Part shown: positions 42,664 through 48,852 of the stretch, piece by piece | How the letters are laid out: each line of letters opens with the position of its first letter | Position numbering within the stretch: the stretch's first letter is position 1 | Origin: an uncultured Alphaproteobacteria bacterium | Lineage (GTDB): Bacteria > Pseudomonadota > Alphaproteobacteria > Paracaedibacterales > JAKBAR01 | NCBI GenBank assembly: GCA_937896365.1 | Contig: CALBMH010000046.1 | Span: 1-48,852, forward strand | Length of the DNA: 48,852 nucleotides | Reading direction: 5' to 3' | Program-made: the position numbers and the translations under genes | Notes under the pieces: model-generated | The model's input: the letters and a program-made list of their open reading frames with translations, nothing else | What the model was told of the DNA's origin: nothing | The model's database searches: none

Positions 42664-44412
42664 TCAATGTTTGTAATCCACTGTTTTCTTTAGTGTCCTT
42701 TGATTCATACTGACGGATATGTCCTTAATTGATCCGATTATTTTTCCCTGATGATCCAGAAGGGTTGCGTTTTCATCAAACATGGCTCCTTTTTTGATAA
42801 GGGATGATACTCCGTATTTAAGGTTTTCAGGTTTAGGTGCATAGTGTCCGCTATTGGTGTTCATCATGATAATCGCATTGTTTTTAAACTGAATTTCTCC
42901 TGCACAAAGAGCATTAGCGCCACCAAGAATAATTGAGTGGATCACACGATTATTAAAATCATTAAAAGGGATTTTGTACGTATCAATAGCAAGTTGTTCA
43001 ATTTTTTCTATTTGCTGCTTCACCAAATCAGGGGCGCTGCTTACACTTGATCTCGCACCGGTGTGAATATAGAGTTGGCCGCGTTCATCAATGGCATAGA
43101 GATAAAGACCATCAAGAACTTTCCCTTCATCGTCTTTGAACACTTTATGATAAGGGATCTTATTTTTAAATAGCACGTGCATATCTTTTAGGGGGATAAG
43201 GCGACGTGGGTCAACCGTCATACTAAAGGTAGGTTTATCCTCTAGCCAAAGGAAATAAGCGAATTTCGACGATGTTTTTGCATAGTCTTTATACTCCATT
43301 ACGTCTGAACGCTTTGCTGGATCAAGGTCTACGGGGATGTCCTGCACCACTTTTGATCGGATGACTTTGTCGTGTTTTTTGTCCATGTTTTTAAACAGCG
43401 TGGCTTTTTCAGAATCTCGTCTTCTTTCAATCTTCTCAGTGGCCATCAGCTTCATTAGATAAGAGGCTTTGGCCTTTGCATTGTTTTTCAGGAGATTTAG
43501 TGTGTAAAACTGTGCTGGGTTGAGCTTTTCTGTTATTTCTTTGCTGAGCAAAAGGTGCTCTGCCTCATCAGCAATGTTGAAGAGTGCATGACTACGCTCC
43601 ACAAGCAGTTCTTTGTTTGTCTTGTCAAGTTGATGGTAATCCTGAACGTGTGCTTTTAAACTTGAGAAGGCAGGCGTGTGGGGTAGACGACCCAAAGCAG
43701 CCTGAGCTATTTTTGAAGCAAACTGTGAATGGGTCTTTAAAAATTCAGGAGACACAGGGCGTTTGGGGCCAAAATAAAATCCTACGGGCGCAATATCATA
43801 CCAAATACGCTCCGGCGTCCACTGTGGTAGAAAACACCGATTATCAACGCACACAATTCCCATATCATGCACTGTATCAAAGTCCTCTTGGTAGGCTTTC
43901 AGGTACTTTATGCGCTCCTCCATCAAGGATTTTAAGATGGTATAGGTATAATAAAACTTCCATTCAAAAAGTGCAGAGAAAGGAGGATTATTGGCGAGGA
44001 TTTTTTCAATGGACCATGAGTTACTCATCCTTTCATGCTCTAAATGGCTGCTACTGTCAATAAAATCCTGTTCTCTCATAAAGTTCTCATAAGTTTCAAT
44101 TTCAAAGGATGCTGGCTTCATGATTTTTATAAAGGACAATGACTCAAAAAAATCCTCATATCCCTGGAAAAGTCCATTAAGTGGCTGCAGATTTTTTTGG
44201 TTTAACCCGTGACTGGGATGCCAGTTTTTGAGAGTCGCTAAAAATATGTTGTCTTTATCTTTCGGCGTTGGGGATTTCATCACAGCCTCATACAAGGCCG
44301 ATGGCCACCATTCATACTGTTCGACGCCTTTGTAGGTATAATCCGAAGCGTAGGCATGCACCATTAACATGATGGCGAAGCTTGGTGGTGCTAGAACTGA
44401 CTTGAAAGACAT
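42664..44412 (-). CDS. Hypothetical, probably secreted protein with C-terminal IQM-like / SGHY domain (candidate effector or toxin)
   Basis: Signal-like MSFKSVLAPPSFAIMLMVHAYA. C-terminal LDP.KR...FAYFLWLE...YLYAID...LYI...IHSIILGG...AGEI....I....TNSGHY.P..ENL. Confidence 0.7.
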   Translation of the reverse strand: MSFKSVLAPPSFAIMLMVHAYASDYTYKGVEQYEWWPSALYEAVMKSPTPKDKDNIFLATLKNWHPSHGLNQKNLQPLNGLFQGYEDFFESLSFIKIMKPASFEIETYENFMREQDFIDSSSHLEHERMSNSWSIEKILANNPPFSALFEWKFYYTYTILKSLMEERIKYLKAYQEDFDTVHDMGIVCVDNRCFLPQWTPERIWYDIAPVGFYFGPKRPVSPEFLKTHSQFASKIAQAALGRLPHTPAFSSLKAHVQDYHQLDKTNKELLVERSHALFNIADEAEHLLLSKEITEKLNPAQFYTLNLLKNNAKAKASYLMKLMATEKIERRRDSEKATLFKNMDKKHDKVIRSKVVQDIPVDLDPAKRSDVMEYKDYAKTSSKFAYFLWLEDKPTFSMTVDPRRLIPLKDMHVLFKNKIPYHKVFKDDEGKVLDGLYLYAIDERGQLYIHTGARSSVSSAPDLVKQQIEKIEQLAIDTYKIPFNDFNNRVIHSIILGGANALCAGEIQFKNNAIIMMNTNSGHYAPKPENLKYGVSSLIKKGAMFDENATLLDHQGKIIGSIKDISVSMNQRTLKKTVDYKH

Positions 44413-44620
44413 AGGCAAACCCAAAATCTTAAATGATATATTATTTTCAAATATAGAGTAAAAATTGTTAATAAATGATTGATAAAATATAGTAACGCCT
44501 AGGATAAGAGTTATTCTTCGATAAAAAAAGCGTGACAGGATAAGGGAGAGGGGCAGAAGAGGTAAGAACAAAAAAATATTGAGCCTTAGACTATTTTCGA
44601 CTAATGTCTCAGTATATTTT

Positions 44621-44711
44621 GGAGAGGTGGCCGAGTGGTCGAAGGCGCACGATTGGAAATCGTGTATACGCTAATCCCGTATCGAGGGTTCGAATCCCTC
44701 TCTCTCCGCCA
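44621..44711 (+). tRNA. tRNA-Ser(GGA)
   Basis: Anticodon arm CACGA-TTGGAAA-TCGTG, long variable arm, CCA. Confidence 0.97.
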
Positions 44712-44811
44712 GTTTACAACGCTCGAACTTTTTGGGCGTCATTTTTCAAGTTCACAAACCACCCTCAGAACCCCAGTATTCATAGGCTTTAGAGCCTTTT
44801 AGTCGTCCGAC

Positions 44812-44919
44812 ACATGCGTACCTAGAGAATCGCAAAATCACCGATTTCACCCCAAAATCTCTCTTTTTACTCTCCGTTTCTCCGTTAGATGCGAACGTCG
44901 GTCGTCAAGGTACGCATGT
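44812..44919. repeat. 12-bp perfect inverted repeat
   Basis: ACATGCGTACCT (44812-44823) and AGGTACGCATGT (44908-44919). Confidence 0.8.
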
Positions 44920-44991
44920 CCAGAACCCTTGAATTTACTGGGTTTTTATAAAACTGGTCTCGAGGTTCGTTATTGGGGCGGAGAATGGCGC

Positions 44992-45014
44992 ATGTACCCG
45001 CAGAGCGAGATTTT
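44992..45014 (+). repeat. 23-bp direct repeat, copy 1
   Basis: ATGTACCCGCAGAGCGAGATTTT; 22/23 identical to 46469-46491. Confidence 0.9.
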
Positions 45015-45061
45015 GATAAAAAGTACTTGCTTTTTTGTCGATTTTCATGTTTACTGAAGTA

Positions 45062-45154
45062 ATGAAATACGCACGCACAAACAAAATTTTTCGATTTAGC
45101 GGCCTCTTGAACCGATCCGGGTTTCAAGGGCATGGCGTATTTTTATCTAATTAA
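45062..45154 (+). CDS. Putative leader peptide (uORF), 30 aa with 4 Phe
   Basis: MKYARTNKIFRFSGLLNRSGFQGHGVFLSN*. Starts about 6 nt after a TTGCTT-17-TTTACT promoter-like element, so possibly leaderless. Confidence 0.3.
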   Translation: MKYARTNKIFRFSGLLNRSGFQGHGVFLSN

Positions 45155-45180
45155 AATTCCCCAATCCTGTCTTCTGAAAT

Positions 45181-45268
45181 CTTCTCGGCTCGGTCAAGAG
45201 GCGAACTTTGAATTTGTTTCGCATTATCGACATCGGTAATGCCTCTAACCAACTTTAAAGCCGAGAGG
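45181..45268 (+). promoter_or_regulatory. Structured cis-regulatory RNA sequestering the SD of the PheS-like gene
   Basis: CTTCTCGGCT pairs with AGCCGAGAGG (covers the SD). Inner helices AGAGGC/GCCTCT, GCGAA/TTCGC and GCATTATCG/CGGTAATGC. Confidence 0.6.
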
Positions 45269-45274
45269 TAAAAA

Positions 45275-46408
45275 ATGACTATCAAAAAAATCAGTATGGA
45301 GCAACTGAGATATGCTCTGAATTTACGTGACTTATCTAATCCAAAGGATGGACATCATGCTATACAGCTTTTGATGCAGGCTATCTTAAAAGCCCTTGAA
45401 GATGCCTGGGAATGTAATATCAAAATTCACAGAGAAAGCCCCATTGTCTCAATTGCAGATAACTACGACCGATTGAATTACCCGAAAGATGGCGCCTCCA
45501 GAAATGTGAGATATACCCGCTATGTCTGCGATACTGCGCTACTGAGAACGCAGGCTTCGGCTATGGTGCCTAATGCCATGCAAGAAATTTCCGATAATAT
45601 GCCAGGCGATGTTTTGATTGCATTACCAGGGTTGACTTATCGCAGGGACTGCGTAGACCGTATTCACTCCGCAGAACCTCACCATCTTGATCTGTGGCGT
45701 TTAAAAAAGGACAGTAAGCTAAACGATAATGACTTGATAGAAATGATTACACTCTGGATGGACGCGGTTTTGCCTGGGATAAAATGGAAAGTTACACCGA
45801 GCCAGCATCCTTACACGCTTAACGGTGTGCAGATTGATGCGCTGTGGAACGAAGAATGGATTGAGATCGGAGAATGCGGTTTGGCTCATCCCGAAATTAT
45901 CAAAGCAAATATTGCCAATTCTGAAGGAATATCCGGCTTAGCTATGGGGTTAGGTCTCGACAGAATTCTAATGGTGAAAAAGAATATTCCAGATATTCGA
46001 TTGATTCGCTCAACTGATCCCCGTGTTCTAGATCAGATGAATGATTTAGCGCCATATAAGCCAGTTTCGTCTATGCCACCAGTCACACGCGATTTATCAA
46101 TTGTTTTGGATGACCACATCAATGATGATGATATTGGTGATGTTGTACGGGAATCTTTAGGTGAAACCTCTGACATTGTGGAAGTTGTGAAAACAATGTC
46201 AGAAACCGCATATGAAGAATTACCCGATCAAGCAAAAAAACGGCTTGGAATTCAACCCGGACAAAAGAACATTTTACTGAGAGTAATTTTGCGCGATTTA
46301 GGTAGAACGCTTACCACCGAAGAATGTAATCAATATCGAGACATTATATACGCTGCTCTCCACAAAGGCACAGAGTGGCATTGGGCATCAAAAGAACCTG
46401 ATAAATAA
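45275..46408 (+). CDS. srmL: Monomeric PheS-related ligase (PheRS-alpha catalytic core plus C-terminal FDX-ACB), resembling the 'PheS-related mystery ligase SrmL' family
   Basis: NYD.L..P....SR...T.Y....LLRTQ.SA, motif 2 GLTYRRD.VDRIH, EIGECGLAHP, motif 3 GLAMGLGLDRILM, FDX-ACB PPVTRDLSIV...YR/LR...RTLT.EE. Family name recalled, not searched. Confidence 0.85.
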   Translation: MTIKKISMEQLRYALNLRDLSNPKDGHHAIQLLMQAILKALEDAWECNIKIHRESPIVSIADNYDRLNYPKDGASRNVRYTRYVCDTALLRTQASAMVPNAMQEISDNMPGDVLIALPGLTYRRDCVDRIHSAEPHHLDLWRLKKDSKLNDNDLIEMITLWMDAVLPGIKWKVTPSQHPYTLNGVQIDALWNEEWIEIGECGLAHPEIIKANIANSEGISGLAMGLGLDRILMVKKNIPDIRLIRSTDPRVLDQMNDLAPYKPVSSMPPVTRDLSIVLDDHINDDDIGDVVRESLGETSDIVEVVKTMSETAYEELPDQAKKRLGIQPGQKNILLRVILRDLGRTLTTEECNQYRDIIYAALHKGTEWHWASKEPDK

Positions 46409-46427
46409 TTGCTAGATACGCGCTAGC

Positions 46428-46461
46428 TCTCACTCTGAAGTATTGTTCTCTGAGGGTGAGA
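46428..46461 (+). terminator. Stem-loop downstream of the PheS-like gene
   Basis: TCTCACTCT pairs with AGGGTGAGA (one G:U), preceded by a GCTAG/CTAGC hairpin at 46411-46427. Confidence 0.35.
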
Positions 46462-46468
46462 TCGTTGT

Positions 46469-46491
46469 ATGTACCCGCAGAACGAGATTTT
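46469..46491 (+). repeat. 23-bp direct repeat, copy 2
   Basis: ATGTACCCGCAGAACGAGATTTT, followed immediately by CTGCTG-17-TAAAAT with an extended -10 TG. Confidence 0.9.
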
Positions 46492-46618: not shown

Positions 46619-47128
46619 ATGCAAGTAGAAGTAGTTAAAGCCACCATAGAACAGAAGCCCGTGCTGGCTAATCTATTAGAATTATACGCTTATGACTTCA
46701 CAGAATTTTGTGACTTTGATCTTGGTGACGATGGTTTTTATGGATATGAGCGCCTGCCTTTGTATTGGACAGAGTCAAATCGCTTTCCCTATTTGATTTA
46801 CGTTGACAAGAAAATAGCTGGGTTTATCTTGGTGCAAAAGGGATCGCCCATTTCAGATGATACAACGGTTTGGGATATTTCTGAATTTTTTGTCATGAAA
46901 AAATATAAGCGGCACGGTGTTGGTACTGCAGCTGTTTTGAAGATATGGGAGCAATTTAAAGGCCCATGGCAAGTCAGGGTATTGGTGAGCAATCCAATAG
47001 CTTGTTCATTTTGGTTACGGGCCATTAAAAATTTTACTTTAGAAGCCCCTGCTAAAACTGAGGCAACGATTAAAGAAGAGGACTGGATTATTTACACATT
47101 TGAATCAAAAGATAGGAGCAGCCTATGA
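46619..47128 (+). CDS. GNAT family N-acetyltransferase
   Basis: LANLLELY.YDF.EF, ISEFFVMKKYKRHGVG acetyl-CoA motif, N..A..FW. GAGGA RBS. Confidence 0.9.
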   Translation: MQVEVVKATIEQKPVLANLLELYAYDFTEFCDFDLGDDGFYGYERLPLYWTESNRFPYLIYVDKKIAGFILVQKGSPISDDTTVWDISEFFVMKKYKRHGVGTAAVLKIWEQFKGPWQVRVLVSNPIACSFWLRAIKNFTLEAPAKTEATIKEEDWIIYTFESKDRSSL

Positions 47129-47895
47129 ACGCTCCATTAACAAATTTATACCGCCAAGCCGAAGACTATTTTTTCAGAGGCATTTCCTCAAAATGTTTGG
47201 ATCTGGACGACGGTGCTCATGCTTATATGACCGGTGGCGCGGAACTCAATTTTATTTACATTACACGAAACACAAACGCTCTGGATAAAATTTTAATCCA
47301 AGGCAAGCAGTTTTTCGACCAGGATAACCGTTCTTTTGATGTGATCATTCCACAAGAATTATGCAGGTCTCAAATAGCAGATGTTTTAAACACCATGGGT
47401 TACCCTCAGAAAAGCAAATCCGTTTCAATGGTTGTGGACCTAGATAGATTTGCAATGGACAAAACTGCGAGTTTTGATTCTGAAACTATGGTCAAACCGA
47501 ATGATGATCAATTAAATGACTGGATGATTCCATTGATAGGCGCATTTGAATCAACGATTGAAATTTGTAGGGTCTATGCAGGCACCCATGATAATGCTTT
47601 AAAACGGAATCTTAATCTTCGCCATTTCAGCTTATACAAACAGGAGCAACCAATAGCATCAATCACCCTATCAATGTGTGACAACACCATTGGAAGGATA
47701 GACGACGTGGGCACTCTGCCTGCGTTTCAAGGCAAAGGCTATGCAAGCACGCTCATGCGTTACGTATTATTAGAAGCAAAAAAATTAGGCGCTCGTCATT
47801 GCTTTTTGGAATCATCTGATTCAGGACTTGGAGTCTACCAAAAACTTGGGTTTGAGACCCTCTTTAAAAACAATATTTATTCGAGAGAAAAATGA
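47125..47895 (+). CDS. GNAT family N-acetyltransferase
   Basis: IDDVGTLPAFQGKGYA motif A, VYQKLGF. ATGA overlap with the upstream GNAT. Confidence 0.9.
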   Translation: MNAPLTNLYRQAEDYFFRGISSKCLDLDDGAHAYMTGGAELNFIYITRNTNALDKILIQGKQFFDQDNRSFDVIIPQELCRSQIADVLNTMGYPQKSKSVSMVVDLDRFAMDKTASFDSETMVKPNDDQLNDWMIPLIGAFESTIEICRVYAGTHDNALKRNLNLRHFSLYKQEQPIASITLSMCDNTIGRIDDVGTLPAFQGKGYASTLMRYVLLEAKKLGARHCFLESSDSGLGVYQKLGFETLFKNNIYSREK

Positions 47896-47920: not shown

Positions 47921-48852
47921 ATGCTAATAAAACCTGATCTCAAAGACGAAGAAATTATTGCGTGTTTGCGGGATGCATATGGGCTGACTATAGAAAAAGT
48001 AGTATTTTTGCCACTTGGTGCCGATTTCAACACAGCTGTTTATCGCATTACAACAAGTAACCAAACAGATTACTTCTTAAAATTAAGGAGCGGTAAATTT
48101 TTAGAGGCTTCGGTATCGGTGCCAAAATACTTGGCTGATATGGGTATCAAGCAAGTAATCCCACCTCTTGCAACCAATACAGGGCAACTTTGGACAAGTT
48201 TGGCATCCTTCAAGGCAATTCTGTACCCTTATGTGGAGGGGCATAATGGCATTGACACCAAACTATCAGAAGATCAGTGGGCTCAATTTGGGGTGGCCAT
48301 TAAAAAGCTTCATGAGATCGATATTCCTGCATCAATAACAAAAGATGTACCACGAGAGACGTTCTCTTCCAAATGGCGAGAAACCGTCAAAGCATTTCTT
48401 ATGCGCATTGAACGTGAGGTTTTTGAAGAGCCTGTTGCTGTAAAAATGGCATTGTTTCTAAAATCCAAAAGGTGCGAAATACTTAAACTTGTTGAGCGCG
48501 CTGAAGAGCTTGCGCTCGCAATCCAAAAACAGCCCATCGACTATGTTTTATGCCACGCTGATATGCATGGCTGGAACCTGTTTGTTGATAAAGAAAACGC
48601 TCTTTATATTGTTGACTGGGATACGCTCATCTTTGCCCCCGTCGAGCGTGATTTGATGTTTATCGGCGCTGGTATTTGGGATAGTGGCCTGACAGCCGCC
48701 GAAGAAGAATCACTATTTTATCAGGGCTATGGCCAAACAAAGATAAATCAAGATGTGATGGCCTACTATCGTTTTGAACGTATTATTCAGGACATCGGCG
48801 ACTATTGTGAATACATCTTTCTGTCTGATGAAGGTGGTGACGATCGTATGCA
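47921..48852 (+). CDS. Aminoglycoside/spectinomycin phosphotransferase, APH(9)-like (3' truncated by the window; absent from the ORF track)
   Basis: Manual translation: MLIKPDLKDEEIIACLRDAYG...LGAD...YFLKLR...YVLCHADMHGWN...YIVDWD...APVERDLMFIG...FYQGYG...YYRFERIIQDI. Motif layout matches Legionella APH(9)-Ia as recalled. Confidence 0.88.
   Translation, partial: MLIKPDLKDEEIIACLRDAYGLTIEKVVFLPLGADFNTAVYRITTSNQTDYFLKLRSGKFLEASVSVPKYLADMGIKQVIPPLATNTGQLWTSLASFKAILYPYVEGHNGIDTKLSEDQWAQFGVAIKKLHEIDIPASITKDVPRETFSSKWRETVKAFLMRIEREVFEEPVAVKMALFLKSKRCEILKLVERAEELALAIQKQPIDYVLCHADMHGWNLFVDKENALYIVDWDTLIFAPVERDLMFIGAGIWDSGLTAAEEESLFYQGYGQTKINQDVMAYYRFERIIQDIGDYCEYIFLSDEGGDDRM

Follow-up and report, generated by a model that had tools for sequence, protein, structure and literature searches.

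SrmL, a phenylalanine-free relative of phenylalanyl-tRNA synthetase behind a leader with a conserved Phe codon: a candidate inducible backup enzyme on a mobile cassette

The srmL gene found in a contig of an uncultured alphaproteobacterium (genome G000; the window, that is, the whole stretch of DNA analysed, comprises 48,852 nucleotides) encodes a homologue of phenylalanyl-tRNA synthetase (PheRS) that lacks phenylalanine altogether and is preceded by a leader ORF with a conserved Phe codon. Neither the absence of Phe from SrmL nor the leader ORF with its putative attenuator stems had been noticed in the first-pass annotation of this DNA. The Phe codon of the putative switch, the lack of Phe in the product and the fold shared with PheRS jointly point to one stress, namely, lack of Phe-tRNA. 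That srmL responds to a shortage of Phe-tRNA appears very likely, whereas the complete scenario, under which SrmL is an inducible backup PheRS that takes over the loading of Phe on tRNA-Phe upon failure of the housekeeping enzyme, is assigned a probability of roughly 0.55. Thus, a family that has had a name but no explanation gains a specific trigger and, with it, a direct test. The features of the locus, all on the forward (+) strand, are as follows.

44621 to 44711, + strand: tRNA-Ser(GGA), the likely integration site of the island (tRNA scan; compare the copy in genome G459, below)
44992 to 45014, + strand: left member of the pair of 23-nt direct repeats that flank the srmL cassette (repeat search)
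45062 to 45154, + strand: leader ORF of 30 codons, with the putative sensor codons CGA-TTT (Arg-Phe) at 45092-45097 (ORF list, locus comparison)
45102 to 45138, + strand: attenuator arms 1 (about 45102-45115) and 2 (about 45117-45138), predicted to form a local 1:2 hairpin (predicted folds)
45166 to 45202, + strand: arm 3, predicted to pair with arm 2 and arm 1 (open state) or, via 45180-45190, with the ribosome-binding site (closed state; predicted folds)
45259 to 45269, + strand: arm 4 with the Shine-Dalgarno-like sequence of srmL, predicted to be sequestered in the closed state (sequence, predicted folds)
45275 to 46408, + strand: srmL, encoding a Phe-free class IIc synthetase core and an FDX-ACB domain, 377 aa (ORF, profile and structure evidence)
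46469 to 46491, + strand: right copy of the 23-nt direct repeat (repeat search)
46619 to 47128, + strand: GNAT gene, island cargo outside the srmL unit, 12 Phe (Pfam)
47125 to 47895, + strand: GNAT gene, island cargo, 14 Phe (Pfam)
47921 to 48852, + strand: gene of an APH(9)-like phosphotransferase, truncated where the contig stops, with 16 Phe among the 310 aa encoded (profile searches)

In SrmL, the Pfam domain tRNA-synt_2d (residues 46-255) is followed by FDX-ACB (265-365), and no editing domain was detected in the Pfam scan. The NCBIfam model NF051887, 'PheS-related mystery ligase SrmL', is matched over its entire length (model positions 1-349 of 349) with 484.7 bits, for a cut-off of 300, and the score with the mitochondrial-type PheRS model TIGR00469 is 140.7 bits, under the cut-off of 258.35. 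The structure closest to the AlphaFold model (mean pLDDT 84.8) is that of human mitochondrial PheRS (3cmq; Z 32.2, 341 residues aligned, rmsd 3.4), which is also the best fold relative according to Foldseek, and the nearest clusters in the ESM Atlas bear the same family name as SrmL. These results bear out the initial description of a PheS core fused to FDX-ACB in 377 aa, with a mitochondrial-like architecture, and the three profiles proposed at that stage as a check (SrmL, tRNA-synt_2d and FDX-ACB) all match; judging from the domain architecture, the protein would be monomeric. The absence of pheT from the window had also been recorded correctly, and the gene had rightly been taken for an extra paralogue belonging to a family without an assigned function, given that the canonical pheS and pheT are located elsewhere in the genome, on contigs C41 and C26, respectively, which rules out SrmL as the only PheRS of G000. 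A canonical pheS is likewise present in all four further carrier genomes (five of five with G000). The SrmL family is large, with more than 3,000 protein clusters; a contig search with the single SrmL protein as the query recovered 3 loci only. The gene is filed here as SrmL, not as PheRS, although the protein most likely works like a PheRS.

None of the 377 residues of SrmL is Phe. Of the 509 ORFs in G000 that span 300 aa or more, srmL is the sole one without Phe, and given a mean Phe content of 4.76% in this genome, the probability of such a sequence arising by chance is about 1e-8. The same feature is seen across the family: 102 of 120 close homologues (0.06% Phe overall) and 71 of the 83 proteins encoded in the collected loci are Phe-free, in contrast to the controls, namely, 5 canonical PheS (5.87% Phe) and 23 viral mitochondrial-type PheRS (6.12% Phe). 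By contrast, SrmL is not poor in Tyr, Trp, His or Met. The viral sequences used as controls and outgroup derive from 24 contigs (L090-L114), likely of giant viruses, that encode Phe-rich, single-chain PheRS of the mitochondrial type. Given that SrmL is Phe-free, its production needs no Phe-tRNA, so that the mRNA would be translatable during the shortage. Among 150 distant representatives, 77 are Phe-free and a tail of proteins contains 6 to 24 Phe residues; SrmL-like proteins in this range include P0130, P0145, P0151, P0160, P0167 and P0179, some of which regain Phe at canonical positions, and in the group of P0186, P0195, P0208 and P0256 the motif 2 loop is lost. In a quick tree, SrmL-like rows form a clade separate from both PheS and the mitochondrial type (SH-aLRT 99), within which rows with and without Phe are intermixed around an unresolved base. 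The tree does not order the events, so that the Phe-containing rows may be either ancestral or relaxed, and its '1 change' figure leaves aside 27 ungrouped rows.

Residues of the catalytic pocket were assigned from alignments. The motifs singled out in the first-pass annotation are present as described, HPYT at 178-181, PHHLD at 135-139 (family consensus PHQ.D, position 137 being Q in 78 and H in 39 of 117 proteins) and GLAMG at 221-225. Columns that contain Phe in both PheS and the mitochondrial type are replaced in SrmL by Y64, P135, H178, Y180, L222 and M224. These six replacements cover all the changes of Phe listed in the first-pass annotation. The pocket is therefore 'rewritten', as had been stated, mostly as a by-product of the purge of every Phe, and A223, T181 and G225 are kept. 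The 24 Phe-containing distant relatives complicate this explanation: 13 of them keep P135, 17 keep H178 and 22 keep Y180, with Phe at position 64 in 17 and at position 135 in 6, and given how common P135, H178 and Y180 are in these proteins, the purge may not account for those particular changes. By alignment, A223 and T181 correspond to A294 and T251 of the E. coli enzyme, which we take to be the residues that set the size of the amino-acid pocket. The FPF aromatic loop of PheRS is represented by H178-P179-Y180, with its aromatic character kept. Invariant in all 117 SrmL proteins are R123, D125, H131, E197, G225 and R230, together with A223 and Y180; the motif 2 Arg (R123), the motif 3 Arg (R230) and the Mg-binding Glu (E197) are thus all retained. 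The invariant ATP-binding residues match Arg204 and Arg321, which bind ATP in Thermus thermophilus PheRS according to PMC8555319. The same source describes stacking of Phe216 of that enzyme on the adenine, and the corresponding position is occupied in SrmL by Pro (P135; 114 of 117 proteins), not by Tyr, His or Trp. Furthermore, an invariant Glu200 is found where the pocket Gly stood, and Asp139 where Glu stood. In the anticodon-binding domain, the set of residues that read G34 in human mitochondrial PheRS (Asp364, Phe366, Ser375 and Arg414, with Asp364Gly abolishing charging, PMC7540514) aligns with S309, T311 and N332, with no Arg in the set. Given these changes, canonical recognition of tRNA-Phe by SrmL is not supported by the alignment; the residues in these positions are nearly invariant, which implies that the surface is under selection for something, and it possibly holds tRNA in a different way.

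Because Glu200, Asp139, R79 and the anticodon-domain residues do not represent removals of Phe, an altered specificity may apply. Together with the remodelled anticodon face and the absence of an editing domain, these residues are compatible with a rather doubtful scenario under which, in a shortage of Phe-tRNA, SrmL loads tRNA-Phe with Tyr, Leu, Met or an analogue, or loads Phe on another tRNA, and ribosomes pass Phe codons at the price of mistranslation. The evidence for the trigger is the same here as for the backup PheRS; substitution would, in addition, work without free Phe, and prephenate dehydratase was not found in four of the five carrier genomes, G000 included, although the assemblies may be incomplete. 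ProRSx and ThrRS-T2 provide precedents (PMC9437257). However, the prototroph G151 carries srmL too, and a strictly Phe-free sequence is less needed once a little of the substitute enzyme has been made. The size-gate Ala and T181 are retained, the loop is still aromatic, and the PheT editing site of the housekeeping PheRS would likely remove Tyr from the tRNA. The non-Phe substrate envisaged in the first-pass annotation is weakened by the Phe codon of the leader and the Phe-free sequence, which tie the gene to the supply of Phe-tRNA and thus argue against an unrelated substrate.

The leader was delineated by comparison of 86 srmL loci, of which 75 include at least 230 nt upstream of the gene and 63 are non-redundant after removal of 12 near-duplicates; L081 (cut start), L090 (viral mitochondrial-type PheRS) and 9 more loci with less than 230 nt upstream were left out of the leader counts, and the mis-anchored L037 and L064 were placed in the held-out set. 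The hexamer CGATTT is present in 41 of the 63 leaders, compared with 1.9 expected. For the 52 anchored leaders, an ATG was identified in frame with this site in 41 cases (compared with 2 and 1 for the two alternative frames) and an in-frame stop 12-26 codons downstream in 48. In the held-out test, the site was located by a matrix built from the 16 nt after both codons and hence blind to the codons themselves; TTT was found in the Phe position in 10 of the 13 held-out loci, preceded in each case by a codon for a residue other than Arg, and the lowest scores were those of the 3 loci without TTT. Altogether, Phe is encoded at the fixed site in 60 of the 63 leaders, by UUU in 53 of these 60, even though the median GC content of the leaders is about 67%; CGA-TTT is also present in both plasmid copies. 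A role of CGAUUU as one side of a stem was rejected, given that the complementary sequence was found 14 times versus 15.9 expected, and in the absence of a conserved pairing partner, the constraint is on the codons, read as codons. L053 and L078 possess a variant leader, with two Phe codons near the start, that was missed by the main matrix.

Arg precedes Phe in 50 of the 60 leaders and occurs one codon earlier in 30 of these 50, a pattern that resembles drug-stalling peptides, and some srmL copies lie near resistance genes. On these grounds, one could propose, as a highly improbable alternative, that the leader senses a ribosome-targeting antibiotic via the Arg-Phe peptide, or is an RNA motif, with SrmL ligating an unrelated substrate and the loss of Phe being incidental. 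Yet ten held-out leaders keep TTT with Gln, Leu, Cys, Ile or Phe where the others have Arg, and on this basis Arg was rejected as the residue that is sensed. Nor would a signal at the level of the peptide require the prevalence of UUU at this GC content, and the loss of Phe, apart from its minute chance probability in G000, recurs family-wide.

The presence of a TAnnnT box in 31 of 50 leaders, located 5-8 nt ahead of the start codon of the leader, compared with 2-7 in shifted controls, suggests that many of the leader transcripts may be leaderless; the consensus promoter scan detected no site before the leader of the window. The Rfam scan of the region yielded the tRNA and chance matches only, with no known leader RNA, and the 6 leader peptides compared with NCBIfam gave no match. 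Contigs from four RNA-library runs cover parts of the cassette at low depth and have no bearing on transcription, strand or level.

The leader region of the window folds better than all 200 shuffled sequences (z = -4.35). The C-rich arm 1, located right after the Phe codon, has a partner inside the leader ORF that beats shuffles in 41 of 49 leaders and a second partner, past the leader stop, that does so in 45 of 49. The resulting stems are predicted to be mutually exclusive and to gate either the srmL start site or a terminator. With a ribosome covering the RNA to 12 nt past the Phe codon, the predicted cost of opening the srmL start is 4.2 kcal/mol, compared with 9.6 kcal/mol once the ribosome is seven or more codons further, and this step is stable over three assumed footprints. 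Over 50 leaders, the direction of the switch is as predicted in 31 and opposite in 14 (Wilcoxon p = 0.01, with related loci not being independent). Terminator-like hairpins were detected by a loose rule in 10 of 52 leaders, several of them clear, so that transcription attenuation seems likely in some lineages. Under the mechanism suggested by these folds, the ribosome would run through the leader when Phe-tRNA is plentiful, and arm 3 would then shut the ribosome-binding site of srmL or, in some relatives, a terminator would form instead. When Phe-tRNA is scarce, the ribosome would wait at UUU and cover arm 1, arm 2 would take arm 3, and the start site would open. The steps that follow are the least certain: the kept ATP-binding residues and the aromatic H178/Y180 loop would activate Phe and load it on tRNA-Phe, and SrmL would be insensitive to the block on the housekeeping PheRS, which is most plausibly imposed by a natural inhibitor.

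The genomic setting of srmL is that of a mobile gene. It is located 0.56 kb behind tRNA-Ser(GGA), and the direct repeats enclose a 1.47-kb cassette that consists of the leader and srmL. Contigs from the public runs X1 and X4 join position 45014 to 46487, with the cassette absent; they represent a related element that is about 10% different and has 11 other letters at the joint. Within the class, srmL was found in only 2 of 401 genomes, and within the order, in 1 of 62 (G000 included in both counts). The copy in G459, located behind tRNA-Ser(TGA), is 96% identical (32 synonymous and 14 non-synonymous codon differences), whereas PheS of that genome is only 48% identical. The record of locus L005, which carries the 96%-identical copy, is that of a freshwater-type metagenome-assembled genome labelled, doubtfully, as a named Rickettsia species. 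Three plasmid records match SrmL, and one plasmid copy comes after a cmx gene; the Corynebacterium diphtheriae plasmid OV884290.1 contains an unannotated partial srmL match (hit H3) that covers 55% of the query. A sequence of about 200 nt with inverted repeats, at 44750-44950 of the window, is seen again in hosts that are not related, close to tRNA genes or to the ends of contigs (also contig C74 of G000, L005, L006 and contig C37 of G439) and is probably the end of an integrative element. Between the tRNA-Gly and tRNA-Ser genes, the window encodes a 635-aa ORF (42664-44571, - strand), of which 581 residues were compared with Pfam and NCBIfam and gave no match. In L127 (contig C68 of G439), from the same genus, GNAT-like cargo (identified by eye) lies behind the matching tRNA-Ser with no srmL.

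The two GNATs and the APH reported next to srmL are real, the APH(9)-like kinase scoring below the APH(9)-Ia cut-off, but a resistance-type neighbourhood is not a trait of the family. Among the 113 nearest-neighbour ORFs scanned, of 118 selected, GNAT was found in 3, MFS transporters in 2 and APH in none; 65 of these ORFs have no family assignment, many of them probably being spurious frames. No conserved neighbours were identified among 200 flanking ORFs, where the largest shared family comes from 4 related loci and many contigs are short, and no PheRS-inhibitor or biosynthetic gene cluster was found beside the srmL copies. A functional link of srmL to the GNAT and APH genes was rejected, given that the neighbourhood is not conserved and the neighbours are Phe-rich. 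By eye, an APH-like gene was also seen further upstream of srmL in L007. The spread of srmL, combined with the varying neighbours, implies that srmL moves as a cassette of its own, which is accompanied by resistance genes in some cases.

The patchy, resistance-like distribution would also fit an improbable scenario in which SrmL destroys or adenylates a Phe-like or Phe-AMP-like inhibitor, or strips a block or a toxic analogue from tRNA-Phe, after which the normal PheRS would be able to work again. Such a function accounts equally well for the Phe-free sequence and the Phe-codon switch and is compatible with the lost adenine stack and the changed contacts with G34. What stands in its way is the full class II set of ATP- and Mg-binding residues, kept along with the tRNA-binding domain at positions invariant over 117 proteins, given that loss of that domain would be expected in an enzyme acting solely on a small toxic molecule; moreover, the literature covered contains no known case of this kind.

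For the backup PheRS, inhibition of the housekeeping enzyme is favored as the trigger by the resistance-like spread, and starvation is kept in play by the failure to detect prephenate dehydratase in most carriers. Several observations count against this scenario: a second Phe-charging enzyme would help little in plain Phe starvation, the adenine-stacking Phe and the G34 readers are altered in SrmL, no PheRS-inhibitor gene cluster is found beside any copy, and the switch runs in the opposite direction in 14 of the 50 leaders. The inhibitor-resistant synthetase paralogue that was one of the initial proposals comes close to this preferred reading. Ochratoxin A is listed as a PheRS inhibitor in PMC7916415. 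It can be proposed, tentatively, that SrmL is either an emergency recoding enzyme, induced by a ribosome stall at UUU, that provides a substitute aminoacyl-tRNA for Phe codons by means of its remodelled pocket and anticodon face, or a widespread resistance gene against an undiscovered natural PheRS inhibitor; if either holds, the leader is a ready-made biosensor for the respective stress. The distribution of srmL over islands and plasmids of different phyla suggests that exposure to some agent depleting Phe-tRNA is common, and a fusion of the leader to a reporter could be used to screen for such an agent. In addition, SrmL offers a bacterial PheRS scaffold that is small, consists of one chain and differs in its pocket.

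Among known systems, SrmL is a full-length match to NF051887 above the cut-off, but that family has a name and no function. In our literature search, with subscription journals largely outside its scope, no account of SrmL, of a Phe-free PheRS or of a Phe-codon leader was found, and none of the papers retrieved names SrmL in this sense; within this scope, the Phe-free sequence and the srmL leader are new features, whereas the family itself was already named. As with the low cognate bias described in PMC4209129, where enzymes making an amino acid tend to avoid it, an enzyme needed in a shortage of a residue avoids that residue; however, the bias there is a statistical tendency, whereas in SrmL the avoidance is near-absolute and, in a synthetase homologue, extends to the active-site aromatics. 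Avoidance of the cognate residue would be extreme in a PheRS homologue that has abandoned even the phenylalanines of its active site.

Of the PheRS families A, B and M distinguished in PMC11580382, the single-chain mitochondrial type (PheRS-M, human FARS2, 3cmq), with its giant-virus relatives, shares with SrmL the core fused to FDX-ACB and is the best fold match over both domains, but SrmL scores below the TIGR00469 cut-off, forms a separate clade, contains no Phe and differs in the adenine-stacking, FPF-loop and G34-reading residues. Resistant auxiliary synthetases (TrpRS1 and indolmycin, IleRS2 and mupirocin, SerRS2 and albomycin) are likewise second, divergent copies beside a housekeeping enzyme; the part of PMC9437257 available includes no PheRS case, and neither does that of the tiarin preprint (bioRxiv 10.64898/2025.12.02.691738), and for none of these enzymes do the sources covered describe a complete loss of the residue that is charged. 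For srmL, unlike these synthetases, no matching inhibitor or producer cluster is known. Streptomyces trpRS1 is reportedly induced by ribosome-mediated attenuation, and srmL is likely to represent an attenuator-controlled kind of auxiliary synthetase. In the pheST attenuator of E. coli, the pheM leader with its Phe codons and mutually exclusive stems precede the PheRS gene. The srmL leader shares with this type of attenuator the Phe codon in a leader ORF and the predicted mutually exclusive stems ahead of a PheRS-like gene, but it contains a single conserved UUU, not a run of Phe codons, is often leaderless-like, and controls an accessory, mobile gene.
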